The notes below the pieces were generated by a model. That model had not been told where the DNA came from and searched no databases. It was given only the letters and a program-made list of their open reading frames with translations. The position numbers were made by a program, and so were the translations under genes. Below, one piece after another: positions 22,520 to 57,912 of a DNA stretch of 64,000 nucleotides (the first letter of the stretch is position 1; each line of letters opens with the position of its first letter). The DNA comes from Ruminococcus sp. (GTDB lineage: Bacteria; Bacillota; Clostridia; Oscillospirales; Acutalibacteraceae), in NCBI GenBank assembly GCA_045541275.1, contig JAZQIX010000014.1:32877-96876 (forward strand), in the 5' to 3' direction.

Positions 22520-22596
22520 CCGGGTGTAGCGCAGTTTGGTAGCGCGCTTGAATGGGGTTCAAGAGGCCGCAGGTTCGACTCCTGTCACTCGGACCA
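22520..22596 (+). tRNA. tRNA-Pro (anticodon GGG)
   Basis: Hand-folded cloverleaf. Acceptor CCGGGTG/CACTCGG (C1-G72), D arm GCGC-AGTTTGGTA-GCGC, anticodon arm CTTGA-AT GGG GT-TCAAG, T arm GCAGG-TTCGACT-CCTGT, discriminator A and encoded CCA. Confidence 0.9.
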
Positions 22597-22597
22597 T
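22549..22597. repeat. attL: 49-bp direct repeat (3' part of tRNA-Pro)
   Basis: tgaatggggttcaagaggccgcaggttcgactcctgtcactcggaccat is identical base-for-base to 57864-57912. The flanking bases differ on both sides. Confidence 0.9.
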
Positions 22598-22600
22598 CTA

Positions 22601-22647
22601 AAAGTCTTGAAAAACGCAGTGTTAATGCGGGTTTCAAGACTTTTTTA
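22601..22647 (+). terminator. island-borne intrinsic terminator now serving the tRNA
   Basis: AAAGTCTTGAAA...TTTCAAGACTTTTTT (12-bp stem, T-run), directly after attL. Confidence 0.5.
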
Positions 22648-22798
22648 TTTGCTAAAAAGGGTCTGAAAACAGACGTTTTCAGACCCTTCGGTGTAATATT
22701 GGTGTAACTGGAGCAAAAATCGCTCTTGACTTATTCCATAATATATGGTTATATTTAAGTATAGGTAATTCTGAATTTATGGAAAGTACGGTGAATAT

Positions 22799-25744
22799 AT
22801 GAGCGTAGAGTTTGAAAAAGCAGATATGATCGAAAAATTCAATATAATAACTGAGTGTTTAAAATTTCCAGATTCTCATTTTCGAGAGTTGAATATTTTC
22901 TTGAGCTACCTTTATGTAAGCACAGAACAAATGAAACCCTTTGGCTATTGGTATCACAATATGCCCGACAGAGCTTACAATAGCAATTATTCTCAAAGAG
23001 ACCTAAAAATCTTAATTCAAGATTTTCCTGAGATTCAAATTGATAGAACCTCTGCTGTTGAGATATGGGACTTTCTTGGTACACTTTCCATATACGTTTT
23101 TCTAACTATGTTTAGTGACAAATTAAAAATCTCTTTGGTTGATGTTGTTTGCTCCATTTTGGAGACAGCATATTCTTCAAGATATGCGGCAATTCTGAAT
23201 TTATATCTCGTGCTATATTGCGGAAACTGCGATTATGAGTGGTATATTTCTCTTTATGATAGGATAACCACTGAACTTGACAAAAAGAATAACATAGGCA
23301 ATCCACTTTCGGAGGAAAGTTATTCATATCTCTTTAATGCAATATATCACTCCTGTACTAATCTTACCCATGAAACAATTACGCCTGGAAATGCAATTGA
23401 GTTGTCAGATTTGATATGCAATATTGCTACCTCTAAAAAGCAAAGATTAGAGTTGTTCTATCAATACAAAGAGTTATCGAAGGATACTGAAAGTGATGAG
23501 CGATATATTTTGCTTGCAAAAGATGTAGCGGCATCTGATTTTATCATTGCACAAGATTCAATAGGCGAAGCAGAAATAGAATGCAATATGCTATTTGGAA
23601 GAGTTTTCAATAGACGAGCAAAAAGAATTTTTGTTGTTAACCCTTCGATTGAGCTAATTCGATTACTTAATCGAAAATGTAAAGAAGTAAATAACTACCG
23701 TGATAAGTTAGATCGAGAAACAGACAGGACACCTTTGCAAATTTATGTAGTTACTGATACTGACATAAAAGCAAAGTTGCTAAGAACAGAGTTTAAAAAT
23801 ATCATCTTTTTTTCTTATGACAAATTTTTAGGATTAAAATCTGTTGATTCAATATATTTCAGCGCTACCGACAAAAACACATTTAAGAAACTTAGCGATA
23901 TTTTGGATAAGATTGTCGGACTACAAAACGAAGAGTCTTTGTGTAGCATAGTTATTGGCGATACATCAAAAAAAGATCTATTGAATATGGCCGAGAAATA
24001 CAATCTTTGCATAACTCGAATTGATAGCATTCCCAGTGGAATTACCGATACCGATCCCAAAAAGAAGAGTGTTATTTATTTCATGATTAACAAGGTGCAA
24101 AACGAATCAATATCACTTCGAGAGTATTCCTTGTGTGAAAACGGAAGCAAAGAAATGATACTTAGTAAGGAAGTATTCGTTTCTAAAAGCGATTTGTTTT
24201 CAGACGCATCTTTTTCCAATTTGCTCAAAGAGCGATTTGTTAGATCACCTGTATATAACAAATCTTTGGAAATGATATTCTCAAACGAATTATCAATTTT
24301 CTATAAATGTTATTCTTATAGCGATAAAGCTGATTCATACAGAATTATAGCTTTTCTGAAAGAAAACATTAAAGAAGGCTCCAAAGCTAAATCCGGAAAA
24401 AAGATTAGTAGCTCCGAGAAAGAAAAAAGACTCCACTGCAAAGAATATGAATTATCAGGTTTAATAGAAAAATGGTTAATTCGTGAATATGTGTTGGATT
24501 CAAAAGTATGCGATGATGCAATCAGGTTAATTAAAGAAAAATCACCCCATAAATCCCCTATGTCTTTTAGAAGCTATTGGCTTATCAAGCGACATCTGCT
24601 TTATAAAACAGATGTGGAACTTCTTAACGCACTGGATGAATTGGCGTTTGAAAATCACATTGCAGGACTTATAGTTGGTGAAGCTTCAGGCAAGGATTTC
24701 GAAAATGCTATTTTGAAATATTTATCTCATGATAATTTCAACTTATACTTAGAAGCACTCGAAGAATTTTTTGAGTTTGCGAAAAGAGAGAAATTATATG
24801 AGATAAATCCTATAACAGAGATTTTTCATATTAAGAGAAAAGAAAAGGCTGATTTCGATTCAATAAGATCAGCTATGACTAAAAAGACTTTTTCGAGATA
24901 TGAAGAATCAAAATTAGTGAAACGATTGATAAACAAAGCTAATAGCGACCCGTATGAACTTGCTGTTTTACTTGAACTTTTCACGGGACTATCTGCAAAC
25001 GAAATTGCTGCGCTTAAAGTGAAGAATTTCGAAAAGCGTGGCAGTGGCGAGTGCTATCTAACTGTTTATAGTGCTTTAAAGAAAGAAAACGGAGAATGCA
25101 AACTGATTGTCCATAAAAAGAAAGAGAAACATAGAAGAACTCCTATTATTCCCCTTGTGGCAAAATTTTTTTGTACTGCAGATAAGGATAAAGAGGGTTT
25201 CTTGCTTACCAAGATAAATTCAAACGAACCATTAGATCCGTGGAAAATTTCTGAAACATTAAGAAAAGTCATTAAAGAAGAGTTGGATATCAAAGAAGAT
25301 TTAATCATATTGCCCGACAAAGACGGCAAAGGCAAAACGACTGATTTAAATGTATATTATGGAAATCTGTTAAGATCAAACTACCGATATCAACTGATAA
25401 ATATTTGTAAGATGGAAGAAATGGAGTGCGATTACTTACTTGGCAACCAAAGAAAAGCTGCATACGGTAAAAACTATTGTGACTTTTCAAACAAATTTAC
25501 TCAATTGAGGCTTTATAAGAAGCTTCTCAGATGGGAGGCGCATTATTTACAGATTGATCTTATCCCGGAGACAAAACGTATAAACGTAAGAGGTATTCAT
25601 CTTAGCAAAAAAGGAACCAGAGTCGCAATATCTGCTCAAATTAGCGTTAATGACACAACGCGTATATGCGTTACCAGTAAAGATGGAATTAGCGGAACTG
25701 TATATATAAAGCGAGGTGAGCAAAATGAAAACAAAGATTCCTGA
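22799..25744 (+). CDS. large (981 aa) protein with C-terminal degenerate tyrosine-recombinase-like domain
   Basis: The C-terminal about 300 aa keep the integrase layout, but several catalytic positions are altered: TGLSANE (Arg-I to Ser), HKKKEKHRRTPI (beta-hairpin Lys region), NLLRSNY (His-II to Asn, Arg-II kept), YLLGNQ (His-III to Asn), AAYGKNY (Tyr candidate). The N-terminal about 650 aa are unrecognised. Confidence 0.55.
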   Translation: MSVEFEKADMIEKFNIITECLKFPDSHFRELNIFLSYLYVSTEQMKPFGYWYHNMPDRAYNSNYSQRDLKILIQDFPEIQIDRTSAVEIWDFLGTLSIYVFLTMFSDKLKISLVDVVCSILETAYSSRYAAILNLYLVLYCGNCDYEWYISLYDRITTELDKKNNIGNPLSEESYSYLFNAIYHSCTNLTHETITPGNAIELSDLICNIATSKKQRLELFYQYKELSKDTESDERYILLAKDVAASDFIIAQDSIGEAEIECNMLFGRVFNRRAKRIFVVNPSIELIRLLNRKCKEVNNYRDKLDRETDRTPLQIYVVTDTDIKAKLLRTEFKNIIFFSYDKFLGLKSVDSIYFSATDKNTFKKLSDILDKIVGLQNEESLCSIVIGDTSKKDLLNMAEKYNLCITRIDSIPSGITDTDPKKKSVIYFMINKVQNESISLREYSLCENGSKEMILSKEVFVSKSDLFSDASFSNLLKERFVRSPVYNKSLEMIFSNELSIFYKCYSYSDKADSYRIIAFLKENIKEGSKAKSGKKISSSEKEKRLHCKEYELSGLIEKWLIREYVLDSKVCDDAIRLIKEKSPHKSPMSFRSYWLIKRHLLYKTDVELLNALDELAFENHIAGLIVGEASGKDFENAILKYLSHDNFNLYLEALEEFFEFAKREKLYEINPITEIFHIKRKEKADFDSIRSAMTKKTFSRYEESKLVKRLINKANSDPYELAVLLELFTGLSANEIAALKVKNFEKRGSGECYLTVYSALKKENGECKLIVHKKKEKHRRTPIIPLVAKFFCTADKDKEGFLLTKINSNEPLDPWKISETLRKVIKEELDIKEDLIILPDKDGKGKTTDLNVYYGNLLRSNYRYQLINICKMEEMECDYLLGNQRKAAYGKNYCDFSNKFTQLRLYKKLLRWEAHYLQIDLIPETKRINVRGIHLSKKGTRVAISAQISVNDTTRICVTSKDGISGTVYIKRGEQNENKDS

Positions 25745-27209
25745 AATTGATATATCCGAATATAATGGTAAAATAGGTAATCAAATGACCTTTCATTGTG
25801 TTGTGAAAGAGTATTATGATAAGGGTATATCCAAGGGTTGGCATGCAGATTCAACACATAGGAGCTATATTAACGACTATAATAAAGTTCTTTTTCCTAT
25901 CATTACAGATAAGGTTTCATTAGCAAATTTAAGCAAGGAGTATTTTGACGAGATTATAGATAAAATATCCGATAATTATTTTACTAGTGAACACAAACCA
26001 ATCTCAGAACCCAGGCGTCGACACTTTCGTCATCTTATTCGAAGAGTTGTTGAAACAGGTGCGCAAAATGGTATATGCGACGACTATCTTTGGGGTACAG
26101 TTTTTGCTCCGGATGAGGGCGATTCCATTGAGGGAGATGAACCGAACAAAGATAAATTGCAGATTATACAAAAATCTTTAACTCCTGTTCAAGAACTTAA
26201 AATATACAATCACATAATGATATCTCCTTTACAAACAGGACAGAAAATGGGACTTGCTATTATGTTCTGCAGCGGGGTCAGGAACGAGGAGGCATGCGGA
26301 CTAAACTTTGAAGATTTAATTGTAATTCCTAATCACAAGGGATGTTATTGCATAAGAATATTTAAAACAACTTATCAGTACTCAAATGAACTTAAAGGAA
26401 AAGGAAAGACTACAAATGCATATCGTATCTTGCCTGTTCCGAAAGCATTATCAGATTTAATTTTAGCCCGCAAAGAATACTTACAAAGTTTATTTGAAAA
26501 AGGCGAAATTAAAACACCTGTAGAAAAATTACCGATTGTGTGCGTTGGCAATGATTACGAAAACAGATGTATTGCCGATCATCTTACCTCTGCAGGTAGA
26601 CAACTATTCAAAGATATCGAGGTAGATGAAAAACTCGTTCGTTCTGCTGAGGAGGAACTTATTGATATTTTTACAGCGGCGATAGATATAGATGATGAAG
26701 TAGTTCTAAAAAAACAAGCCACAACGTATCTATTAAGGCGAAATTATGCTACCCACCTTCTTATCTTAGAATTAGATGATGTGGAGATTCACTATCTTAT
26801 GGGACATCAAATAGAAAATCGTTCTTTTAACAGAAATGATTTGAATAATCCCGATAAGTTATTTGCTATGTATAAGAAACTAAATCAACGACCTTTGGTG
26901 GGAACACCGGATTATGGTACTTGTATCATAGAAACCGTTGAAGATATCTCCATAAATATCAAATCGAAAACAAGCTTTGAATTTGATGTATGCGGTGAGG
27001 TCTACCTTCAATTAACCACCTCTGAGCCAAACGATAAAATATCAATAAGGTTTAACAAACCAGAAGATGTTCTTCTTGAAGGAACATACACTATTTTACC
27101 TGTTAATGAGGAATACACTAAAAACATAAGTGTACTTTCCGAGTATCATGCGGAGTATATAAAACTTGAAAGCAAGAAGGAATTATTACACTCCATAGAT
27201 GGAAAATAA
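25725..27209 (+). CDS. tyrosine-recombinase-like protein (about 494 aa), atypical
   Basis: ATG at 25725 after a GAGGTG RBS, overlapping the upstream gene by 20 nt. Motifs: CSGVRNEEACGL (Arg-I), GKGKTTNAYRILPV, TYLLRRNYATHL (Arg-II present, His-II to Tyr), YLMGHQ (His-III). The nucleophile Tyr is not confidently placed. Confidence 0.6.
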   Translation: MKTKIPEIDISEYNGKIGNQMTFHCVVKEYYDKGISKGWHADSTHRSYINDYNKVLFPIITDKVSLANLSKEYFDEIIDKISDNYFTSEHKPISEPRRRHFRHLIRRVVETGAQNGICDDYLWGTVFAPDEGDSIEGDEPNKDKLQIIQKSLTPVQELKIYNHIMISPLQTGQKMGLAIMFCSGVRNEEACGLNFEDLIVIPNHKGCYCIRIFKTTYQYSNELKGKGKTTNAYRILPVPKALSDLILARKEYLQSLFEKGEIKTPVEKLPIVCVGNDYENRCIADHLTSAGRQLFKDIEVDEKLVRSAEEELIDIFTAAIDIDDEVVLKKQATTYLLRRNYATHLLILELDDVEIHYLMGHQIENRSFNRNDLNNPDKLFAMYKKLNQRPLVGTPDYGTCIIETVEDISINIKSKTSFEFDVCGEVYLQLTTSEPNDKISIRFNKPEDVLLEGTYTILPVNEEYTKNISVLSEYHAEYIKLESKKELLHSIDGK

Positions 27210-27240
27210 TAAAACAATATTTATACATATCAGCAAGCAA

Positions 27241-27276
27241 AAAAGGAAGCAGAGTCTTTTGCCTCTGCTTCCTTTT
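27241..27276. terminator. bidirectional terminator between convergent genes
   Basis: AAAAGGAAGCAGAG-TCTTTTGC-CTCTGCTTCCTTTT. Confidence 0.55.
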
Positions 27277-27475
27277 ACTTATTATTATCTCTATCAATTG
27301 TTTCGTTTATTGCGCGCTTGATAAAAGCTGCAACACTTTCACCGGTTTTTTGGGCGTGATCCTGCACAGCTTTGTGTTCTTCGGGTTTAAGTCTGATTTT
27401 TACATCGCTGAACTGAGACAGATATTTCTTTGTTGCTCTGAGCTGAGAATCCGCAGTTTTGTTCTTATTTTCCAT
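27275..27475 (-). CDS. ribbon-helix-helix (CopG/Arc-like) small DNA-binding protein
   Basis: 66 aa from the ATG at 27475 (GAAGGA RBS). ...VKIRLKPEEHKAVQDHAQKTGESVAAFIKRAINETI fits a beta-strand plus two-helix RHH pattern. Confidence 0.55.
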   Translation of the reverse strand: MENKNKTADSQLRATKKYLSQFSDVKIRLKPEEHKAVQDHAQKTGESVAAFIKRAINETIDRDNNK

Positions 27476-27513
27476 ATAAAACAATCCTTCTAAAAAATTT
27501 TTAAAAAAAGGTA

Positions 27514-27771: not shown

Positions 27772-27987
27772 ATGAAAAACACAGCAAAAGAAACTTTGAG
27801 TCCCTTTATGACAGTTGAGGATGTAAGATGTTATCTTAATCTCAGCACCTCGAAAGCCTACGCTCTGACACATCAGAAAGGCTTTCCCGTATGCCGTTTC
27901 GGTAGCAGTATCAGAATACCCAGAGATGCTTTTCTCCTTTGGGTACAGCAGATGTCCAGCATTCCTGAGAATCTGATTGTTGCGTAG
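27772..27987 (+). CDS. xis: excisionase-type helix-turn-helix protein
   Basis: MTVEDVRCYLNLSTSKAYALTHQKGFPVCRFGSSIRIPRDAFLLWV matches the MerR-like/excisionase HTH_17 pattern. It lies directly upstream of int. Confidence 0.65.
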   Translation: MKNTAKETLSPFMTVEDVRCYLNLSTSKAYALTHQKGFPVCRFGSSIRIPRDAFLLWVQQMSSIPENLIVA

Positions 27988-27998
27988 GAGGTGTTTAT

Positions 27999-29096
27999 AT
28001 GGGAAGAAAGCGTTCTAATGGTGAAGGTAGCATTACTAAACGCAGTAATGGTACCTGGCGCGGTCAGTTAATGGTAGGCTACAATGATGATGGTTCACCT
28101 CGTCGTGTAAACTTCAGCGGCAAAACAAAGGCGGAAGTTCTTGATAAAATCCGTGATTATAAAAACAAGGCTGATGCTAAACTCAGCGATGCAAGTAATC
28201 TTACATTCAGTGCTTGGGCTGATACCTGGTATCAGAATTACGAAACTCAGGTTCAGGCATCAACATACGATGGCTACAAGTACACGCTAAAACTTCTAAA
28301 AGAGGGGTTGGGTGGCAAGAAACTCCAGAGCATTATCCTTATGGATGTGAATGCTTTTCTGGATAATCTGCGTCAGCGAAATTACTCTATGTCTGCAATC
28401 CGTAAATGCCGAGCAATGCTCCTGCAGATTTTTGATTACGCAGAGGATAACAATCTGATTATGCGTAATCCTGCTCAGCGCTCAAAACTTATGAAATCTC
28501 AAAGCGAAGATTTGTTTTCCGTTAGTGATGATAAAGATGCATTCACTGATGAGGAAGTTGCAATTCTTGAAAAAGAACTGTCAAATGATTTGCTTGGAAA
28601 CAGTATTCTTTTTATGATTTATTCGGGTATTCGCACACAGGAGTTGCTTGCTCTCACAATATCGGATATAGCCGAGGATGGTTCATCTGTTACTGTAAAC
28701 AAGGCAATCAAGACAGTTAAAGGTAAGCCTACAATTGGTCCTCCTAAAAGCAAGTCCAGTTATCGTCAGATTCCTATTCCCGAGGATAAACGCAAGTATG
28801 CTCTTTATCTGAGAGAGCACGCAAAGCATGATTTGATATGGAGTCATTCGGGAGATAAGCCCTACGGTGTAGGCTCATTTAGACGCCGTTATTATACAGC
28901 GATTAAACCTCTCCCTGTACGTAAACTCACACCCCATTGTTGCAGACACACTTATGTAACAAGATTACAGGCAAAAGGTGTGCCCCTTGAGGTTATTGCC
29001 AAACTCGTGGGACATTCCGAAATCAAGACAACGGGCGTATATTTGCACACAGCATTTCCCACACTGCAGGACGCAGTTACAGTACTTAATAAATAA
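27999..29096 (+). CDS. int: site-specific tyrosine integrase
   Basis: SAM-like N-terminal domain plus a complete catalytic set: SGIRTQELLAL (R), KSKSSYRQIPIP (K), HCCRHTYVT (H-x-x-R), LVGHSEIKTTGVYLH (H, Y). Confidence 0.9.
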   Translation: MGRKRSNGEGSITKRSNGTWRGQLMVGYNDDGSPRRVNFSGKTKAEVLDKIRDYKNKADAKLSDASNLTFSAWADTWYQNYETQVQASTYDGYKYTLKLLKEGLGGKKLQSIILMDVNAFLDNLRQRNYSMSAIRKCRAMLLQIFDYAEDNNLIMRNPAQRSKLMKSQSEDLFSVSDDKDAFTDEEVAILEKELSNDLLGNSILFMIYSGIRTQELLALTISDIAEDGSSVTVNKAIKTVKGKPTIGPPKSKSSYRQIPIPEDKRKYALYLREHAKHDLIWSHSGDKPYGVGSFRRRYYTAIKPLPVRKLTPHCCRHTYVTRLQAKGVPLEVIAKLVGHSEIKTTGVYLHTAFPTLQDAVTVLNK

Positions 29097-29117: not shown

Positions 29118-30071
29118 ATGAATCACCAGTATATTAAAGACTTTATGTATGGCACAACTGTAGCAAGTTGCTACATTCTTCAGGATTTTCGTGTTGGCAC
29201 AACCAAGAATGATACTAAGTATCTGAGTGCAACTCTTAAGGATAACTCCGGAACTATTTCCGCAAAGCTCTGGAGTTATTGCGATTCAGTAAATGCAAAT
29301 GATGTCGGTAAAATTGTGTTTGTTGAAGGTAGTGTTGACATTTATCAGAATAATCCACAGATTGTTCTTTCAGGTATTCGAAGCATAACCTTGGATGATA
29401 TGGAAGGGCTCGATGACTTATCTGCATTGGTTCCTATGGCGCCAATTGATGTTGATGATGAAATGCATAGTATCAGTTGGACAATTTACAGTATGACAGA
29501 CGAGGATTACAAGGCTATCTGTAAAGAGATGATTAGCAGATACGAAAAGGAAATCAGAGTTTTTCCTGCCGCAAAGAGTGTTCATCACAGTTTTCGTTCA
29601 GGTCTTCTTATGCACACAACGAATATGCTTATATTAGCAGAGTACATTGCTGATATTTACAAATCTCATGTTAATCGTGATTTGCTTTTAGCAGGTGTAC
29701 TTTTGCATGATATTGGCAAGATTAAGGAGTTTACCGTCAGCGAGTTGGGTTTGGTTACAGATTACTCAATTGAAGGAAAACTTATGGGACACGCCATTAT
29801 TTGTGCAGAGGAAATTACAGAGATTGCTGATGAGCTCGGTACTCCTGAAGAGAAGGTGCGACTTCTCAAGCATCTTATCCTTTCACATCACGGAAAACCC
29901 GAGCATGGCGCTGCAGTAGTTCCTATGTGTCTTGAAGCAGAACTTCTATCCTGTATAGATATGCTTGATAGCAGAGTGGAAATCTACAGCGAAGCCACCG
30001 CAAATATTTCACCCGGCGAGTTCTCTCCACGTATCTACGCTCTGGACAAGCAAGTATATAGACACAACTAA
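29118..30071 (+). CDS. OB-fold + HD-domain protein (YhaM-like 3'-5' exoribonuclease family)
   Basis: N-terminal OB-like region, then HD signatures LLAGVLLHDIGKIKEF and LILSHHGKPEHGA. Confidence 0.6.
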   Translation: MNHQYIKDFMYGTTVASCYILQDFRVGTTKNDTKYLSATLKDNSGTISAKLWSYCDSVNANDVGKIVFVEGSVDIYQNNPQIVLSGIRSITLDDMEGLDDLSALVPMAPIDVDDEMHSISWTIYSMTDEDYKAICKEMISRYEKEIRVFPAAKSVHHSFRSGLLMHTTNMLILAEYIADIYKSHVNRDLLLAGVLLHDIGKIKEFTVSELGLVTDYSIEGKLMGHAIICAEEITEIADELGTPEEKVRLLKHLILSHHGKPEHGAAVVPMCLEAELLSCIDMLDSRVEIYSEATANISPGEFSPRIYALDKQVYRHN

Positions 30072-30213
30072 TCTTAATATTAACTTAATAATATGGATTC
30101 GCAAAAAAGCTGGTGTTAAAATATTTAACTGAAATGATATAGTGATGGTAGACACAAAAAAGTGTCTACCATCACTTTTTATGTTAGAATAAAGAAAAGG
30201 AGTTGAAAAAAAG

Positions 30214-30573
30214 ATGGGAAGGCCAAAAGGTGGAACAAATAAGAATCATAGCAAAGAAGAAAAATTAGCATTGGTAAAACGAAATTTAGCAGGAGAACGA
30301 GCATCAGATTTGGAAAGAGAAACAGGAATATACCACGCTCAAATACACAAATGGACACAACAGTATTTAGAGGGTGGTGAAGCTGCACTTGTTAACAAGC
30401 GCAAACCGGGTAACCCGCTTGCAAAATATGCGCGTAAAAAAGAACTCACTCCAACAGAGCAATTAGAATACAAAATTGCACTATTAGAGCGAGAACTTCT
30501 AAAGAAAAACGGAGAAATTGTACGATTAAAAAAATTCATAGAACTGGAAAGGGGCGATGCCAAAAGAAAGTGA
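30214..30573 (+). CDS. IS3-family transposase OrfA (HTH + leucine zipper)
   Basis: 119 aa with an HTH (ERETGIYHAQIHKWTQQY) and a coiled-coil tail. The slippery site A_AAA_AAA lies in LKKF. Confidence 0.85.
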   Translation: MGRPKGGTNKNHSKEEKLALVKRNLAGERASDLERETGIYHAQIHKWTQQYLEGGEAALVNKRKPGNPLAKYARKKELTPTEQLEYKIALLERELLKKNGEIVRLKKFIELERGDAKRK

Positions 30574-31472
30574 TTCAGCAAATATATGCTTGTGTTGAAC
30601 GCGAAAGTGAACACCACTCAGTAAAGGAATTATGCGATGTGTATGAAGTATCCCGTTCAGGATATTACAAATGGTTAAAACGGAAAGGAACTTTAAATCG
30701 TTATGAACAGCAACAGCAAGAACTGGATTACTATGTTGCAGATGTTCATTCTCATTATCCGTCGCAAGGATACAGAAGTATAGCAGATACATTGTTAAAT
30801 GAATATGGTTGGGTAGTATCCGATGTTTCTGTGTTTAAATCTATGAGGCGGTTAGGAATTAGTGGATTTATTAGAAAGCAAAAGAATTCGGAACAAGACG
30901 GTTCTGGAAATGAACACGATAGATTCCCTAATATTCTCAACCGAAATTTTTATTCAGCCAAACCGATGCAAAAGATTGTCACCGATGTTACATACATTAA
31001 AAACAAAGGAAAGTGGTATTATCTTGCATGTTATCTGGATTTGTTTAACAATGAAATTGTGGATTGGGAATTAAGTGATACCTTTGACAATTTTCTTGTA
31101 ATGAAACCTGCCAAAAGAATTCTCGAAAAAGCAAAAAGTACTGCAACCCCTATCCTTTTGCACAGCGATCAGGGCGTACAGTACTCATCAGCAGGTTATT
31201 GCAACCTGCTTAAATCTTACAATACTATTCAAAGCATGTCAAGAGCAGGAAATCCGAGAGACAATGCTGTAATTGAATCTTTCTTTGGTAGATTCAAAGA
31301 TGTTATGTCATCACACTTCCAATATTGGAAGTGTGATGACATACACAAAGTTGTTGCCGACACTATTCATTACTTCAATTACATACTCCTGTTCGTAAAC
31401 TTAAAAGAAAGCCGCCAGTCCAATACAGAATTGAACTGGCAGCTTGATCTTTTGCTTTTTTGTGTCTACTAA
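30570..31472 (+). CDS. IS3-family transposase OrfB (DDE/rve integrase core), probably made as an OrfAB -1 frameshift fusion; 3' end possibly frameshifted
   Basis: rve motifs (VTDVTYI, HSDQGVQYSS, GNPRDNAVIESFF). The -1 frame is open from the A7 run. The conserved IS3 C-terminal tail (HTPVRKLKRKPPVQYRIELAA*) is found in another frame from about 31382. Confidence 0.75.
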   Translation: MIQQIYACVERESEHHSVKELCDVYEVSRSGYYKWLKRKGTLNRYEQQQQELDYYVADVHSHYPSQGYRSIADTLLNEYGWVVSDVSVFKSMRRLGISGFIRKQKNSEQDGSGNEHDRFPNILNRNFYSAKPMQKIVTDVTYIKNKGKWYYLACYLDLFNNEIVDWELSDTFDNFLVMKPAKRILEKAKSTATPILLHSDQGVQYSSAGYCNLLKSYNTIQSMSRAGNPRDNAVIESFFGRFKDVMSSHFQYWKCDDIHKVVADTIHYFNYILLFVNLKESRQSNTELNWQLDLLLFCVY

Positions 31473-31596
31473 CTATTGACTATTTCAGTTAAAATATTTA
31501 ACACCAGCTTTTACAATTTTGTTAGATATCTTTGCTCATATTATTTACACAACAAATTTTACTATATATGTAAAAATAATATAAAAACATATTATT

Positions 31597-43175: not shown

Positions 43176-43236
43176 TTTATACTTACACCTCGAAATTTGA
43201 TAAAATAAGAAAAATAATATTTCAATGAGGTGTATT

Positions 43237-44148
43237 ATGAAAAATTTAAACAATCTAATTACTGAGTTTATTAATATAGCTCAGTCAACTAAAAATCTGT
43301 CTACTAAGACCACTACTGCCTACAAGTCTGATTTACACGATTTTGCAAACTATGTAGAAAGTAAATCAATAGGCGAAGACACAATATTAAATTACATACA
43401 AATACTATCTCAAAAAAGGAAGTTGAAAGATAGCACTATAAACAGAAAGCTCATCGTACTTAAAATGTTTTTTCAATTCTTGCAATCTCATAATTACATC
43501 AAGCAAAACTACTTTACTGCACACAATTTCAAGTTCAAACGAGAACGCAAACTTCCAAAAACGATATCCATAAAAGAGTCAAAAAAGCTTTTATCTTACT
43601 CTACAAATCTAACTATCACAGCAAAAAGTGACTTTGAGAAATGGAAATCTATTCGCAACCTAGCTTTGATTGATATACTAATAAGCACCGGAATTAGAAT
43701 TGCAGAAGCTTCCAATATAATGATGGAGGATATTATCACCTCTGAACACACCATACTAATTCATGGTAAGGGACGAAAGCAAAGGCTAATATACATTTCC
43801 TGTTCTCAAACATGGCAAAACTTAAATTTATGGATAAAATACAGAAACAAGCGAGTAACCACATCAAATAATCTGTTTGTCAACCGATACGGAGAACAAA
43901 TCAGTATTCACGGAATCGAATACATTTACAACTCACTTAAAACGGGAGCAAAAATCAATTTAAACTCAACACCACATTATTTAAGACATACCTTTGCAAC
44001 CAATCTTCTTGCAAATGGTGCTGATCTTCGTTCTGTTCAAGAAATATTAGGTCATAGTAGCGTATCTACAACTGAAATATATACTGAGGTTACTACAAAA
44101 CGAAAGATGCAAGTACTAAATAGATACAACTATAGAAATAAATTATAA
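43237..44148 (+). CDS. XerC/XerD-like tyrosine recombinase (complete catalytic set)
   Basis: [12 protein letters not shown] (R), [10 protein letters not shown] (K), [12 protein letters not shown] (H-x-x-R), [16 protein letters not shown] (H, Y). The start is either 43225 or 43237. Confidence 0.85.
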
Positions 44149-48637: not shown

Positions 48638-51600
48638 TCAATACGGAGATAATGAATTCAGTTGTTGTAATATAGAACGCATTATTCCCAAAGCCATAAC
48701 CACACCATACTTTTTCTCTGTTTTACTTTGACCACTATAGCAACAGATACTAAAAACACCATACAGAACATTATAGTACACATGAGAATTCAGTTTTCTG
48801 TGTATTCCTGTTTTTAGGATTATTATATTCATAGAATTATTAATAGAATATCCTGCGTTTATATAAATCTTTCTAACTTCCTGCGCTTTTGTGCTCCAAC
48901 TAATATTAGACCGAGGTACGATATGATGATACTCATACGGCTTTAGAGAATGATACTTCGCCACCGCATTTGTAAGCTCGAACAACAGTAATATAGTTCT
49001 TCTCAACCCGTTAAGTTCTGTATTTATAGCATTCTTTATTGCTGAGACAATAGTTTTTGAATATCGCTTACCAAACACATAAACAACATATGCTACTGCC
49101 ACAGTTATAATCGTAGCCAACACAGCTTTGAGAACACACAACAATGTAGCCTCTGCATAATAATTGCCGCAAAGATCAATATTGTTAACAGGATTATTAC
49201 CACAATACGAAAATAAATTATAGTCTACTATTTTTCCATTTGCTCCTAAAAAAGCTGTATCATCAGGATTAATAAATCTGCCAATCTCAGGATCATAATA
49301 ACGACTTCGGAGATAATAGAAACCTGTTTCATCATCGTATACATAGCCACGATAACGGAACGGATTGAGAAGTGCTATTGAAGTCTCAGATGTTATCTCT
49401 GCACCTGTGGAGTTTGTGATACTTAGGAGCTTGCCGTATGCATCATACTCATAGTTTGCAATTACTGTACCATGGTCAGACACTATCTTTACTATATCAC
49501 CCTGAAGATTCTTAACATAGTAATATCTTGTTGCAACATAGTTAGTATAGTGAGCTACTGACTCAGGCTGACCCTCAGTATCGTAATAGAACACAAGCTG
49601 AGTATCTCCGCGTTTGAGAGAAGTTAGATTATTGTTACCATCATAGAAATACTGAGTAACAGTTCCATCACTATTCTTCTCGGTACGCATACCATTGGCA
49701 TCATAGGTATAGCTTATTGTCTTATTATCCTTTGTCAGGGTTGCAAGCTCACGGCCGTTCTGCCAAGTCATTGTGATGTCATCACGATAGGTTAAGGGAT
49801 TACCCACTGTATCATAGGTAATAGCTTCACCGTTATACTCGGTTAGCAAGTCTTTCCACTCGGAATCGCCATAAGTATAAGATATATCACTTGCAACAGT
49901 TGTCGGATATCCGTAAGTTGGATGAAGATTTTGCACTAATTCCCTGACAATGTTTCCGCCATCATCATACGCATAGGTGGTATATGTGTTATTCACATAG
50001 TTGTTAACGTTTTTGAGCTGGTTTAAGCTATCATAAGTGTAAACATACTTGGTAACTCCGTTTTGGTATTCTCTTCTTATGTTACCGTTTGCATCGTACT
50101 CATAGGAGTAAGTTATAATATCCTTGCTACCACGCTTAACAGATATGCTGTCTACAAGTTCGGTTGTCGCATTATCATCGCTACCTGCCACATAGGTATA
50201 ATCAGTAGTAAATGCAGTAAGATTATTGGGAGAAGTCGACTTGTTTGTGATTCTGCCAAGAGAATCAAGCGCAACTGTAGTATTCCAACCGTCATTGTCA
50301 ACGTAAGAGTTATCGTCCTCATCTACTCCCTGTGTAACCACACGGGTAACATTACCTACAGAGGATACTGTAATCTGATTGCCGTCTGCATCTGTGGAGT
50401 CATTGGAATATGCCACCACACTGCCGTCACTCTGATATGTAGTTGTACCAAGTGCTAAGCCGCTTACATTATACCAATAGTCAGTTATTCTGCCGCTTGC
50501 ATTATCAATTATACGAGCGACATTGCCCTTCTTATTATACACATACTCGGCTAAAACATCTTCTTCGTTGCTGATTCGGATGATATTACCCAAATCGTCA
50601 TAGGTATAGTTAATCACATCACCATTACCGAATGTGGATGCTACAAGGCTGTAGTTATCATTTCCGTATGTGTTAGTAACGAGGGTACGGCTACCAATAG
50701 AGGTAGCTGTGCTATTACCGTAACTGTCATATGCAAAACTATAATTAAAGCCATTGTGGCTAATAGCAGTAAGATTACCTGTATCAGCATAGGTAAAGGT
50801 GTTGGTCACATCACCGCTGGTTTCAGACAGAACATTGCCAAAGGCATCGTAGGTATAAGAGGTCACGTTGCCCTTTGCATCTGTCACACTGTTAACTCTG
50901 CCGTTGTTTGCATCTACTGAGTATGTAACAGTATTACCGCGAGAATCAGTCTCAGAAGTTACATAATTTCCTGTAGAATCATAAACAGTACTTGTTGTAA
51001 TGTGAGTTTTTGAAGAATCAATGGTATCCTCACCATCAGTTGAAGGGATAACTGTACCCTGTGAGGAAGTCAGAACATTGCCATAACTATCATATGTGTA
51101 TGCATAGCCGTCATAAGGCTCTGTGCTGACAGTTTCCTCTGTTGTTTCTGTTGATTCTTCCGTTTCTTCTTCAGACTCTTCGACAGTATACATATTATCC
51201 TCAAAGTTGAGCATACAGTCATAAGCAGTCATTATACCAACATTATAATCGTAGACAAAGGAGAATGCAACTGTGGAAATCACAACATTACTCTTTTCAG
51301 GAGTAACAAACAGATTTACAGATTGCTTTACGGTTGTTGCCGCATTGAAGTTCTGCAGATGTTCCTCAGTGGTACCATCAGCATAATTGATAGTAAGTTT
51401 TATACCGAATGCTCTTTCATCATTATTCAGAGGCACAGAGGTTGCACTTGCAGTACCTGTGATATTAAAGGATACATTTGCTTTATTAATGCTTACAGTC
51501 TGAGTTCTAGTTCTAGTAACTTCTGTATTACCACTTAAATATCTTGATCCGTTCCAACTTCCGCTACCAGAAAAGTCACTGTTGTTAAGAATGTTAAAAT

Positions 51601-54600
51601 CATTCATACAGCTTGCAGACTCACACTGTAAACAGTCAAACCAAGCTGTACCTGTTGCATTCTGAATACCAACGCACACCTTAACAGTAGCGGTTGTATC
51701 GGGAACATTAACGGTAACACTGAACCTCTGCCAGTTATTTGTACCGAGAATAGTATAGCTCTCTTCTTCCTCAACAACTGCACCGCTTGCATCAAGACAC
51801 TGAATCTTTAAGAACGCTCCTGATTTACATTCGCTGAGAGGCGGTGTGAGTTCACTCGTCTTTACATATGAGGAGAAGGTTACATCCCCACCTGCAAGCT
51901 CAGTTGCAGAAATACTCTGAGTTGCCATAGTAATCTGAGAGTTATCTGTATTATTAATCTTAATAGATCTACTACCCAGATGTTGAACTTTCTCTCCGTT
52001 CACTTCTTCTGTTGAAGTATCGTAGGTGAAAGTTCCTGTTGATTCTGTATCGCTGTACTCAGCAACATATCCGCTTGCACTTGTTAAGTAAGAATTAGTA
52101 ATATAATTCTTCGTATAAGAATCTGAGCCCGTTGACAGATAATACCCCTCTGATCCACCAGTATTCTCCAGGTGGCCATCCGCATTGAGAACAGAAACAG
52201 TTCTTCCGTAGTTATCGAAAGTGTAAGTTTCACTTCTTCCCTGCTTGTCTTCTATCTTAGTAGTGTTATCGGTATTATAGTTCATCTGCAACCAGTTTCC
52301 GGATATCTGGTCTGTTATTTTACTAACAGTTCTATCGCTATTATAGGAATAAACCACCTTTGTACCGCAAGTGGACTGAACTGTGTTGATTTGCTTGGTT
52401 GTAACATCATAATAGAATGTAACTGTTTCTCTATCACTGTACTCAATCTTAGAAATCCAATTTTGAGTTTCTGAGCTTGTCCCATATGTAAAGGAAACAG
52501 TTGAACTGTCAGGAGAAGTAATCTTGCTTACCCTTAACTCACCTGTTACAGAATTTGTAGAATATGAGATTATATATTCTCTTCCCGCTCCGTCAGTAAT
52601 CTTAGTAAGGTTTCCGTCTGTGTATGTGTATGTGATTGTGTTGTTGTAATCGTCTACTTCCGATAATATCTTACCACCATTTGCAGGAAGTTCAAAATAT
52701 GCTTTAGTACCAGTTCCCGCATCAAGAATTATGTTTGTTGAAGTCTTTGTAATTGTGTAGCCGAATTCATTTTCATCGGTCCAACTTTCAACATAATCTT
52801 CTGCAGTTGCTTCTTCCTCAGTAACTTCAACCTTTGTAAAATAGTGGTTTGTTCCATCCTCATCAGTGTAGATATAATCGTAACCAAGCGCCTGCAATTC
52901 TTCGCTTGGCACACTTATATATCGATTAAACGACATCTGCCACCCGCAACCTGTAGGCGATCCGTTGCTGAAAAGTTCATCGAATAGTACGCTGTTGTAT
53001 GTGGCAGAAATTGACACAGGCATTCTGGAGCCGCTTTCCTGAACAAGTTCCTGTCGAAGCACTAATGTACCTAAAGCATCAGATACATAACCTGTTCCGT
53101 AGAGTCCTGTACCATGAGTACGGTAAGTTAAATCAGTCTCTGTTCCAACATAGTTCTTATATGTAATTGTAAACATAGGCTTGCAATCGGAGTAGTAACA
53201 AGCATGGCCGCCAAGCTCAATGCCAGCTAAATCATCTGTACTCAACATCACACCATAGTTTGAAGAAGGATCATTGTACCAATCCTTCATCAACTTTGTA
53301 ATATCAAAGGTTATAGCATCCAAACTATCTGCAGTTACTTTGGCATAATCAACAACAGTACTATCAAATGTAACATTATTGTATGTGGCAGTTGCAGTGG
53401 TCCAGTCTGATGTAACCTTATATGCTTTCAACTGCATAGCAAGTGAAGGCTGTGACATAGGATATACATTCAAGGAAGCGTTTACAATATAGTCACCATT
53501 ACTAAGTTCTGTCAGCTCATTTAGCTTAAACAATCCATTATTAACATTGCTATCAGTTTTAGACACATAGGCATTTGTGTGCTGGTTCATAATTTTATTG
53601 GGGTTAGCTGAACTGATATATGCACTAGATGTTTCAGTATAGCTTTCTCCATATTCAACACTAGGGTCAATGGTTACAGGATATACTCGTGATTTATCCT
53701 TAAGCCAATCCTTGTCAGCTGTGAGTTTTACAGACAACTTCCCCTTGTTATTCTGGAGAATTTTAAGCTCTACAGCTTCGCTCATCTCACCCTCTGCATC
53801 CACCATATATGGCGCAGAAATAGTGTATACAACTACTCCGTCAGCATCTTTGAGTTCAATTGTATGACTGTCTACACTTTCAGTTACAAGATCACCAATA
53901 TTGTATTCTATTTTGAAAACATTCTTTGTGTTGGAGGATTTGAGAATCAGATTCTCCTTAACTCCTACTGTTGAGTTAATAACCTCTAAGTCCACATTGT
54001 TGTATATATTTTCATACAATACTGTACTACTTAGATTTGGAAGGACCATAAAAGCATCGTTTCCAACAAGTTCTTCTGAGTTACTTTTCTGTTCCTGAGC
54101 TTCAACAATGTTTGCTCCCGAATATCCCCAGGAGATAGTATGGTTATCCCTTGTAATTTCTATAAGTTTCGCCTTGCCTGACTTCTTAAAATGAGAAACC
54201 TTTGAGTTACTCTTTTTGTTCGTAAAAGTATCCTCTGTTTCTTCAATAGTTCTGAGGCTATATGCGGAAACTTCGTCTGCAGTTACTTCATCCTCTGTTG
54301 CTTCTGAAATTGTCACCTGTGATGAAACCAGTGAATTATCAAAATCAACATATTCTCCGTTTGCATCTTTATAATGCACAGGCACAGCATACTGAGCGGC
54401 GATGGTTGTGCCTGCATCAGTAATGAAGTGCTTTGTATATTCATCACGTTTTGATGTATCTTCGCCAATAATATTTCCTTCGGATGTTGCATCTTCTTGC
54501 TGTATTGATTCTGAATCAGCTAAACCTTCAACCTCATCAGGGGTTGCTGTAGCAGCTACCTGTACAGGCAGAGTAAACGATATCAATACAACTAAAATAA

Positions 54601-54640
54601 TTGACAAAACAGATATCGTAATTTTTCTGAATTTACTCAT
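48638..54640 (-). CDS. RHS/YD-repeat polymorphic toxin with DNRLRE-like N-terminal domain and C-terminal TM + AHH/HNH-like nuclease tip
   Basis: Signal peptide (MSKFRKITISVLSIILVVLISFTLPVQVAA), many YxYDxxGN YD repeats, RHS core PFRYRGYVYDDETGFYYLRSRYYDPEIGRFINPDD and boundary NNPVNNIDLCG. The 175-aa tip has a hydrophobic helix and YEYHHIVPRS...NIIILKTGIHRKLNSH. Start trimmed to the ATG at 54640 (AAAGGAGAA RBS). Confidence 0.9.
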   Translation of the reverse strand: MSKFRKITISVLSIILVVLISFTLPVQVAATATPDEVEGLADSESIQQEDATSEGNIIGEDTSKRDEYTKHFITDAGTTIAAQYAVPVHYKDANGEYVDFDNSLVSSQVTISEATEDEVTADEVSAYSLRTIEETEDTFTNKKSNSKVSHFKKSGKAKLIEITRDNHTISWGYSGANIVEAQEQKSNSEELVGNDAFMVLPNLSSTVLYENIYNNVDLEVINSTVGVKENLILKSSNTKNVFKIEYNIGDLVTESVDSHTIELKDADGVVVYTISAPYMVDAEGEMSEAVELKILQNNKGKLSVKLTADKDWLKDKSRVYPVTIDPSVEYGESYTETSSAYISSANPNKIMNQHTNAYVSKTDSNVNNGLFKLNELTELSNGDYIVNASLNVYPMSQPSLAMQLKAYKVTSDWTTATATYNNVTFDSTVVDYAKVTADSLDAITFDITKLMKDWYNDPSSNYGVMLSTDDLAGIELGGHACYYSDCKPMFTITYKNYVGTETDLTYRTHGTGLYGTGYVSDALGTLVLRQELVQESGSRMPVSISATYNSVLFDELFSNGSPTGCGWQMSFNRYISVPSEELQALGYDYIYTDEDGTNHYFTKVEVTEEEATAEDYVESWTDENEFGYTITKTSTNIILDAGTGTKAYFELPANGGKILSEVDDYNNTITYTYTDGNLTKITDGAGREYIISYSTNSVTGELRVSKITSPDSSTVSFTYGTSSETQNWISKIEYSDRETVTFYYDVTTKQINTVQSTCGTKVVYSYNSDRTVSKITDQISGNWLQMNYNTDNTTKIEDKQGRSETYTFDNYGRTVSVLNADGHLENTGGSEGYYLSTGSDSYTKNYITNSYLTSASGYVAEYSDTESTGTFTYDTSTEEVNGEKVQHLGSRSIKINNTDNSQITMATQSISATELAGGDVTFSSYVKTSELTPPLSECKSGAFLKIQCLDASGAVVEEEESYTILGTNNWQRFSVTVNVPDTTATVKVCVGIQNATGTAWFDCLQCESASCMNDFNILNNSDFSGSGSWNGSRYLSGNTEVTRTRTQTVSINKANVSFNITGTASATSVPLNNDERAFGIKLTINYADGTTEEHLQNFNAATTVKQSVNLFVTPEKSNVVISTVAFSFVYDYNVGIMTAYDCMLNFEDNMYTVEESEEETEESTETTEETVSTEPYDGYAYTYDSYGNVLTSSQGTVIPSTDGEDTIDSSKTHITTSTVYDSTGNYVTSETDSRGNTVTYSVDANNGRVNSVTDAKGNVTSYTYDAFGNVLSETSGDVTNTFTYADTGNLTAISHNGFNYSFAYDSYGNSTATSIGSRTLVTNTYGNDNYSLVASTFGNGDVINYTYDDLGNIIRISNEEDVLAEYVYNKKGNVARIIDNASGRITDYWYNVSGLALGTTTYQSDGSVVAYSNDSTDADGNQITVSSVGNVTRVVTQGVDEDDNSYVDNDGWNTTVALDSLGRITNKSTSPNNLTAFTTDYTYVAGSDDNATTELVDSISVKRGSKDIITYSYEYDANGNIRREYQNGVTKYVYTYDSLNQLKNVNNYVNNTYTTYAYDDGGNIVRELVQNLHPTYGYPTTVASDISYTYGDSEWKDLLTEYNGEAITYDTVGNPLTYRDDITMTWQNGRELATLTKDNKTISYTYDANGMRTEKNSDGTVTQYFYDGNNNLTSLKRGDTQLVFYYDTEGQPESVAHYTNYVATRYYYVKNLQGDIVKIVSDHGTVIANYEYDAYGKLLSITNSTGAEITSETSIALLNPFRYRGYVYDDETGFYYLRSRYYDPEIGRFINPDDTAFLGANGKIVDYNLFSYCGNNPVNNIDLCGNYYAEATLLCVLKAVLATIITVAVAYVVYVFGKRYSKTIVSAIKNAINTELNGLRRTILLLFELTNAVAKYHSLKPYEYHHIVPRSNISWSTKAQEVRKIYINAGYSINNSMNIIILKTGIHRKLNSHVYYNVLYGVFSICCYSGQSKTEKKYGVVMALGIMRSILQQLNSLSPY

Positions 54641-54820
54641 TACAATTCTCCTTTCGACATACAAAATAAAAAGCGAGACATAACTATGCTCAGCACAGTT
54701 GCCCGCTTCTCTTTGGACAACTGCTGTCGTCCATAAATAGAAATTATGCTTTTTTGGGGGTGCTCCTGCCTTGGCGAGAAAATCGTAGAGAAATATACCA
54801 AGGCAGGATTATTAACAATC

Positions 54821-57863: not shown

Positions 57864-57912
57864 TGAATGGGGTTCAAGAGGCCGCAGGTTCGACTCCTGT
57901 CACTCGGACCAT
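57864..57912. repeat. attR: 49-bp direct repeat (duplicated 3' part of tRNA-Pro)
   Basis: Identical to 22549-22597. There is no tRNA 5' half upstream of it. Confidence 0.9.

Follow-up and report, generated by a model that had tools for sequence, protein, structure and literature searches.

Two overlapping tyrosine recombinase paralogues of a Ruminococcus genomic island with a predicted active site divided between the chains

In Flp, the recombinase of the yeast 2-micron plasmid, DNA is cleaved in trans: one protomer gives the Arg/Lys/His pocket and its neighbour gives the tyrosine, and in half-site complementation a Tyr mutant is paired with a pocket mutant. In the topoisomerase IB of Leishmania and Trypanosoma (LdTOP1L/S, PDB 2B9S), the pocket lies in the large subunit and the tyrosine in a separate small subunit (PMC1669778). 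The accepted catalytic pentad of tyrosine recombinases (TRs) is RK(H/Y)RH (PMC8152469, PMC8138268). Every recombinase of Tn554 (TnpA/TnpB) and of the RIT elements carries the RHRY set, and there is no separate integrase on the element; SE and GInt elements encode TR-fold proteins without catalytic residues, Tfp and GinC, respectively, from overlapping, probably translationally coupled genes at the element end (PMC10214605). The TR-like relaxases of the MOB_M class include TcpM of pCW3, MobK of pIGRK and MpsA/MpsB of SGI1, of which MpsA needs MpsB (PMC8152469); they are reported mostly from chromosomal elements, 96% of them near an integrase (preprint bioRxiv 10.64898/2026.01.13.699239). Here we describe two overlapping genes, denoted A and B, in a 64,000-nt stretch of DNA of Ruminococcus sp. 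(GCA_045541275.1, JAZQIX010000014.1, positions 32,877-96,876, forward strand), referred to below as the window. We put a probability of about 0.55 on the reading that the two products form an obligate heterodimer of TR origin with a single active site divided between the chains, which would nick and join DNA rather than integrate it. The pair appears to be a new variant within the TR superfamily, with a function predicted from sequence and structural models.

The genes and the codon of the predicted nucleophile are located as follows:

22799-25744, plus strand: gene A, encoding 981 amino acids (aa)
25475-25477, plus strand: codon of Tyr893 of A, the predicted nucleophile (coordinates checked)
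25725-27209, plus strand: gene B, 494 aa from the ATG

The frame of B opens with a GTG at 25716 (497 aa); the likely start is the ATG at 25725, which follows a GAGGTG ribosome-binding site, and with this start the two genes overlap by 20 nt, as the initial annotation had it. Residue numbers of B follow the 497-aa form. The two proteins are paralogues across the core-binding, catalytic and C-terminal domains (hhalign probability 99.8, E 2e-27). A consists of a helical region specific to the close clade (1-190), an HsdM/CamA-like fold (193-480), a beta-rich region resembling a target recognition domain (~481-582), the TR core-binding (583-691) and catalytic (692-917) domains, and a beta tail (918-981) that is predicted to pair with B; B consists of a core-binding domain (~10-130), a catalytic domain (148-365) and a C-terminal beta domain (402-480). 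The initial annotation was thus right in assigning integrase-like domains to both proteins but not in placing them at the very end, as both carry the extra beta domain past the integrase domain.

The TR fold is evident in both proteins. Residues 588-830 of A and 19-365 of B match the PHROG_1 integrase family (E 5.7e-10 and 8e-16, respectively), and the hhalign comparison of their profiles with canonical integrases yields probabilities of 98.2 (E 5e-14) and 98.9 (E 3e-17). Sequence searches with A against Pfam, NCBIfam and PDB returned nothing useful, and its profile gave only weak core-binding-domain matches in PDB. Among the structural matches (AlphaFold2 models; predicted local distance difference test, pLDDT, 87 for A, with matches from Foldseek and VIA, and 79 for B), XerA aligns with A 583-917 (Z 16.4, root-mean-square deviation (rmsd) 10.9, 242 residues aligned) and with B 10-392 (Z 16.7, rmsd 13.7, 245 aligned), and the Staphylococcus aureus integrase 3nkh_B aligns with the catalytic domains alone (Z 13.9, rmsd 3.2, 166 aligned for A; Z 14.2, rmsd 3.2, 177 aligned for B). 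Both models also match the Tn1549, Brujita, Cre, lambda and P2 integrases, and B matches the large subunit of Leishmania topoisomerase IB (2b9s_A; Z 9.7, rmsd 3.4, 150 aligned). Neither protein combines the pentad and the tyrosine in one polypeptide.

The catalytic residues are distributed between the two proteins in a complementary manner. In a MAFFT alignment of 153 relatives of A, the Arg-I position is occupied by Ser732 (TGLSANE; Glu in 78 family members, Ser in 22, Asp in 19), a beta-hairpin Lys is lacking in A and is not conserved in the family, the His-II position is Asn856 (Asp in 140), and the His-III position is Asn883 (Asn in 73, otherwise hydrophobic); Arg-II is kept as Arg859 (Arg in 117, Lys in 13). 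Tyr893 is present in 149 of 149 relatives and is the sole invariant column of a 120-sequence alignment with a mean column identity of 13%, the relatives being ~13-20% identical. The alignment of A with integrases produced by hhalign places Ser732 at Arg-I, Asn883 at His-III and Tyr893 at the nucleophile. The A homologue of one locus, L010 (translation of 635-2248), contains a run of X; the stored DNA has N at the Tyr motif, and the sequence was left unscored for this reason. In B, Arg189, Lys231, Tyr338 (the His-II position), Arg341, Arg342, His364 and Arg373 are each found in all 18 sequences aligned, and Arg189, Lys231, Tyr338, Arg341 and His364 align with the integrase R, K, H, R and H. No conserved Tyr is present past His364 among the 18 sequences, and the alignment of A with B contains a 2-residue deletion in B exactly at Tyr893-Cys894 of A. 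These patterns indicate that B has the pentad without the nucleophile and A the nucleophile with almost no pentad. The initial annotation had reported the loss of Arg-I, His-II and His-III in A with Arg-II kept, and the retention of Arg-I, Arg-II and His-III in B without a nucleophilic tyrosine; all of these calls hold, and the substitutions are properties of the families rather than of the window. What these calls had not included is that A keeps the nucleophile and B the beta-hairpin Lys.

Under the reading that we favour, B would supply the phosphate-activating pentad (Arg189, Lys231, Tyr338, Arg341 and His364), and A would donate Tyr893 in trans, on a segment between the last helices of its catalytic domain. 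The pocket of A itself would be disabled, with Ser or Glu in place of Arg-I, Asn or Asp in place of His-II, Asn in place of His-III and the beta-hairpin Lys missing, and it is chiefly the pairing of the C-terminal beta domains that would keep the two chains together. Each A-B unit would then cleave one strand only, and an A2B2 assembly could exchange only one pair of strands. With one site per unit, full two-step recombination would be impossible, which makes a nicking and joining enzyme likelier than a full integrase; integration and excision at the tRNA gene would be performed by the complete integrase (Int) and excisionase-like (Xis) pair encoded nearby.

To model the complex, A(560-981) and B, each entered as an alignment, were co-folded in three runs alongside three controls. 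The interface score ipSAE was 0.72 for the pair (0.72, 0.61 and 0.76 in the individual runs) and 0.00 for the best of the three controls; in a benchmark that applies only roughly here, as our own alignments were used, solved complexes attain 0.72 in 58 of 80 cases and mismatched pairs in 2 of 110. At least 67% of the contacts are shared between runs, and the pLDDT of the partner is 77 or higher. Contacts between the C-terminal beta domains (A 923-973 with B 402-480) have the highest confidence, and the confident interface also includes residues 887-889 and 892-895 of A, that is, the Tyr893 segment, and residues 341-343 and 364 of B, with Arg-II and His-III. The co-fold supports binding of A to B, and the interface residues in the model are those expected for donation of the tyrosine in trans.

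The linkage of the two genes was assessed by scoring every locus retrieved, from 29 lineages, with profiles of A, B, Int, a gene denoted C, NikA-like proteins, helicases and HD proteins. Among the 25 lineages in which at least 1.5 kb of sequence lies downstream of A, 24 have B as the very next gene, either overlapping A or separated from it by a few bases, so that the pair is conserved as a unit beyond the window. The solitary A protein of locus L056 reaches an unusually high score with the B profile (94 bits); it was considered as an ancestral complete form and rejected, since it has the same degenerate pocket. Of the earlier suggestion of a heteromeric recombinase of the Tn554 or RIT type, the heteromeric part is upheld by paralogy, adjacency, complementary residues and the co-fold; the Tn554/RIT model is not.

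Several observations weigh against the divided-site reading. The degenerate pocket of A retains strongly conserved residues, Asp856, Asn861 and Asp895, and may act on its own, for example through metal-dependent chemistry in cis; MobK requires Mg2+. The co-fold is read from its list of interface residues, which gives no specific pairing of Tyr893 with the pocket. Dimers and tetramers of TRs (Cre, Flp, XerA and lambda Int) are among the solved structures, and because of this the positive co-fold may partly echo known complexes; both the binding of A to B and the donation in trans are read from a structural model. Locus L056 (7233-10253) encodes A without B, with convergent genes downstream, and the helicase and gene C that accompany the pair elsewhere are absent from the clade of the window. 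TR chemistry produces a 3'-phosphotyrosyl link and classical relaxases a 5' link. Furthermore, comparison of A and B with TcpM (NC_010937) by hhalign gives probabilities of 2.6% and 2.1%, respectively, that is, no specific sequence relation; for TcpM against canonical integrases the probability is 53%.

The N-terminal region of A, which the initial annotation could not recognize, contains an HsdM/CamA-type fold. Residues 193-480 match HsdM (2y7c_B; Z 15.3, rmsd 4.4, 279 aligned; 2okc_A, Z 15.1), CamA (7lt5_A; Z 13.9, rmsd 3.6, 226 aligned), PacII and M.BseCI; Foldseek supports the fold with E 2e-5, and some of the CamA alignments continue into the C-terminal DNA-recognition domain of CamA. The combination of a Rossmann-type fold with HsdM-like preceding helices places this region in the gamma class of N6-adenine methyltransferase folds. 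A regular-expression scan of 153 family members detected methylase motif IV ((N/D/S)PP(Y/F/W)) in none of them and the S-adenosylmethionine-binding motif I (D/E-x-x-G-x-G) in three, in a loose form; the loops at the motif positions are conserved as P-S-P-x-F and L-x-P-x-G-I instead, and A has no methylase match in Pfam or NCBIfam. We infer that residues 193-480 are a dead N6-adenine methyltransferase retained as a DNA-binding module. Together with the recognition-domain-like extension, this would most likely constitute a sequence-specific, possibly base-flipping DNA-binding module that positions the enzyme.

Word-index searches returned only four relatives of A and six of B. The impression that the two proteins are near-orphans was rejected, the low count being an artefact of sensitivity: an exhaustive profile search detected 1,182 cluster representatives of the A family at E <= 1e-3 and 343 at E <= 1e-30. 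Most members are 900-1,200 aa long, and none of the nine tested contains a Pfam domain. Carriers among Clostridia include Dysosmobacter, Lachnospiraceae, Acetatifactor, Pseudoflavonifractor phocaeensis An507, Oscillibacter valericigenes An907 and a Ruminococcus metagenome-assembled genome (MAG); those among Spirochaetales are three MAGs labelled Spirochaetales and one Candidatus Ornithospirochaeta; 31 further loci come mainly from human-gut metagenomes. Near-identical copies of the module were seen across 12 studies of gut metagenomes, among them goat and bovine ones, and one metagenome contig of 10.7 kb covers the module from the tRNA end through the HD gene. Broken copies were also seen: A is in two frames in L007 (4872-5540 and 5455-7731), B is split in L041 (11406-12897), and in Oscillibacter valericigenes An907 A is cut to ~315 aa (L029, 9263-10825). 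Both genes are full-length in Pseudoflavonifractor phocaeensis An507 (L024). A was not found in any of 200 same-family genomes or of 400 genomes in a phylum sample, so that it is rare among species representatives rather than absent. No match was detected by tblastn with P0001 and P0031 in 72,556 plasmids and 50,697 phages or with two peptide patterns in IMG/VR, and PADLOC-DB 2.0 contains no family matching A or B at E <= 1. A feature-cluster search yielded generic integrase clusters only, all with scores below 0.9, and no description of the A-B pair was found in the literature searched.

The pair usually has a recurrent set of neighbours: gene C, an integrase with a complete active site, a NikA-like protein and a RecD/PIF1-type helicase (Hel). 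Common layouts include A-B-C-Int-Hel and A-B-C-Int-NikA-Hel; another has A-B-C on one strand and Hel-NikA-Int on the other. Both Clostridia and Spirochaetales show the general order A-B-(C)...Int-(NikA-like)-(RecD/PIF1 helicase). Representative positions in the retrieved loci are:

L006 5271-6293; L016 14699-15709; L019 14400-15269; L022 7717-8619; L026 14422-15417; L027 14259-15296: gene C
L007 751-3366; L016 19844-22574; L021 15695-18627; L026 15472-18208; L036-L045: trio of Int, NikA-like protein and RecD/PIF1 helicase, beside A-B-C

Gene C, of ~290-350 aa, lies directly 3' of B in many lineages; its product has a Cys/His-rich N-terminus (C-x-G...C-N-A...H-x-x-G-C) and a shared Q-D-P-Y motif and matches nothing in Pfam or PHROG. 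In a close variant of the module on one goat-gut metagenome contig (X1), 2,027 other letters replace the 79 bp that separate B from the ribbon-helix-helix gene (window 27183-27263), an insert that could be an insertion sequence (IS) or a C-like gene. No recognizable relaxase or Rep protein is encoded on the A-B elements. Altogether, A-B-C and the Int/NikA-like/helicase trio seem to form the backbone of small integrative elements that belong to an undescribed family in gut Clostridia and Spirochaetales. The presence of a complete Int and of a NikA-like accessory protein and a helicase, with no recognizable relaxase or Rep, favours a nicking role in transfer or replication; A-B probably performs site-specific nicking and joining in one of these processes and may be relaxase-like, replication-priming or topoisomerase-like.

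In the clade of the window (the window, L001 and L003-L005), the order is constant, A-B-RHH-Xis-Int(-HD), where RHH stands for a ribbon-helix-helix protein, and the module always lies directly past tRNA-Pro(GGG). The recurrence beside tRNA genes that the initial annotation had raised thus holds within this clade and mostly not outside it, where no tRNA adjoins the pair in 11 of the 12 loci scanned. The cargo varies within the clade, with defence genes in the window, McrBC and type I restriction-modification genes in L001 and Phd-Doc in L003; the constancy of A-B against this variable cargo identifies the pair as part of the conserved element backbone, separate from the Int/Xis module. Minimal elements of ~8-10 kb consist mostly of A-B(-C) and Int (L003, L007, L019). 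The other features of the island in the window are:

22520-22596, plus strand: tRNA-Pro(GGG), detected by ARAGORN, the sole tRNA gene of the window
22597-22798, plus strand: conserved leader from the tRNA to A, with two hairpin/terminator-like elements and a putative promoter-like TTGAC...CATAAT
27275-27484, minus strand: RHH protein, 69 aa, with a weak, sub-threshold NikA-like/CopG assignment (Pfam NikA-like E 5e-5, RHH_1 E 6e-4)
27772-27987, plus strand: HTH_17 protein, 71 aa, excisionase-like (Pfam PF12728, E 2.7e-9)
27999-29096, plus strand: canonical island integrase (Int), 365 aa (Pfam PF00589, E 1e-16, and SAM-like domains)
29118-30071, plus strand: YhaM-like OB-fold and HD phosphohydrolase protein, 317 aa (Pfam HD, E 2e-13, and OB fold)
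30111-31506: IS3-family element, just past the OB/HD gene
57864-57912, plus strand: attR, a 49-nt copy of the 3' half of tRNA-Pro, followed by a terminator hairpin

A and B are the first two genes of this island. A 49-nt direct repeat is formed by the 3' half of tRNA-Pro (22549-22597, attL) and attR, and the two copies delimit a 35.3-kb island integrated in tRNA-Pro; a 25-mer out of the repeat has two exact matches against none expected, and the GC content falls from ~0.44 to 0.30-0.35 just past the tRNA gene. In the alignment with L001, L002 and L003, conservation of the leader runs unbroken from the tRNA to A. No attR copy was found within the DNA retrieved for L003. A search for an empty tRNA-Pro site in relatives found none, as their DNA does not conserve the right flank, and the loose ends of the metagenome contigs at the tRNA have no match to the right flank of the window. 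Int has the complete R-K-H-R-H-Y set, with the motifs GIRTQE, PPKSK, HCCRH and GHSEIKTTGVY in the alignment. The gene for the 69-aa RHH protein is also found in L001, L003 and L004, and the OB/HD gene directly follows Int in the window, L003 and L004 but not in L001; its product scores marginally above the Pfam threshold for TraI_2, the N-terminal domain of MOB_H (25.3 bits against 23.9), probably through the HD region. The IS3 element is absent in the closest metagenome variants, whose contigs diverge at ~30055-30130, and was probably inserted into this genome recently. The cargo past it is a run of defence genes (SIR2-HerA, Mrr-STAND and Abi-like), and the island also contains a 2,008-aa open reading frame on the minus strand (48638-54664). 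An integrase-like gene at 43225-44148 was considered as a part of the module and rejected, being a separate Xer-type gene.

The chief alternative is that A-B is a heteromeric or accessory site-specific recombinase, acting at att or secondary sites with Int or in its place, like Tn554 TnpA/B/C, SE IntA-Tfp-IntB-Srap or GInt GinABCD, and perhaps with a strand bias by which a single pair of strands is exchanged. Both proteins have the full core-binding and catalytic architecture; A begins 200 bp from the attL of the window and, in L001-L003, lies directly past tRNA-Pro; a canonical Int was found within ~7 kb in 13 of the 14 lineages of the initial survey and in the retrieved locus in 14 of 20 in the wider one; and SE and GInt likewise mix TR-fold proteins without catalytic residues with complete ones, the exchange in SE being strand-biased (PMC10214605). 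However, Int and the Xis-like protein are already a complete integration module, and one active site per A-B unit could not perform the second strand exchange. The gene arrangement also speaks against this role: Int often lies on the opposite strand with unrelated genes between (L016, L025-L027), whereas Tn554, SE, GInt and RIT are tight operons, and outside the clade of the window the pair as a rule has no tRNA beside it. We consider such a recombinase unlikely, and a role of both A and B as catalytically dead architectural or regulatory DNA-binding factors, for example in setting directionality or target choice for Int, very unlikely. Neither chain has a complete active site, and Tfp and GinC are still needed for recombination without having catalytic residues (PMC10214605), but the conservation of Tyr893 as the single invariant residue of A across such divergent relatives, together with the invariance of all five pentad residues of B, is the pattern of a working active site and not of decay. 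For this reason, the possibility raised in the initial annotation that a recombinase fold was co-opted only for DNA binding is unlikely.

The island of the window is full of defence genes, and relatives of the pair lie beside Abi_2, Fic, CRISPR-Cas9 and McrBC genes, so that A-B(-C) might instead be a defence, exclusion or addiction cargo, in which the dead methylase senses foreign or unmodified DNA and the TR-derived site nicks or traps it; methylase-like sensing domains are common in restriction-type systems. The island-maintenance or defence role suggested initially nevertheless seems quite unlikely, though somewhat likelier than a catalytically dead pair. A and B are in the constant portion of the element, present even where little else is, and it is the defence genes that vary; there is no PADLOC match, and the lack of relatives in the plasmid, phage and IMG/VR searches is atypical of defence cargo, since such genes pass freely between types of element.

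Within the favoured reading of A-B as a nicking and joining heterodimer, we tentatively suggest, as a possibility that falls short of even odds, that A-B(-C) represents an unrecognized class of two-subunit, TR-derived nickases guided by a dead methyltransferase, and is the missing relaxase or replication initiator of widespread elements of gut bacteria. On small gut and rumen islands without a known relaxase, A-B is the sole unexplained candidate for DNA cleavage and may explain how these islands move. If the active site is indeed divided, the pair would be a natural, fixed bacterial version of the shared active site of Flp; no example of a natural split active site in bacteria was found in the literature searched. 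The A family comprises more than 1,000 sequence clusters without a Pfam family. Annotation pipelines label B as 'integrase' and A as 'hypothetical', and element finders that count integrases would therefore misread such islands. The use of a dead methyltransferase as a DNA-targeting module on a recombinase scaffold would also be of interest for the engineering of site-specific nickases.

Compared with the described systems, the pair shares parts of several. Residues 193-480 of A have the same fold as HsdM, CamA and M.BseCI, but motifs I and IV are gone. Like Tn554 and RIT, the island is a mobile element with several consecutive TR genes, with overlapping frames among them; unlike the recombinases of those elements, which have no methylase-like domain, A and B are each incomplete, and the complete Int is encoded at 27999-29096. 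Tfp and GinC, compared here by description only, resemble A and B in their non-canonical TR active sites; however, they also lack the tyrosine, lie between or after two complete recombinases in an operon that includes a small coiled-coil protein, pair with Srap or GinD and are reported mainly from Gamma- and Betaproteobacteria, whereas A has retained an invariant Tyr and B the whole pentad, Int, which is complete, is encoded separately, and the order A-B-(C or RHH)-...-Int differs from IntA-Tfp-IntB-Srap and from GinA-D. The MOB_M relaxases are likewise TR-derived and nick rather than recombine, which makes them a precedent of function and not relatives: they are small (TcpM, the member compared, has 266 aa) and consist of the catalytic domain only, with the complete pentad and the tyrosine in one chain, and A and B match only weak Xer models in NCBIfam. 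LdTOP1L/S belongs to the same superfamily and has the pocket and the tyrosine on separate chains; it is a eukaryotic relaxing enzyme without a recombinase-type core-binding domain or a methylase module, and the predicted tyrosine donor of A-B is, by contrast, the larger protein and itself a full TR paralogue. With Flp, finally, A-B would have the shared site in common, the division between B and A corresponding to the split in Flp complementation; unlike Flp, a homotetramer of complete subunits, A-B would have this split fixed in two genes, with only half of the potential sites active, and with a dead methyltransferase module carried by A.

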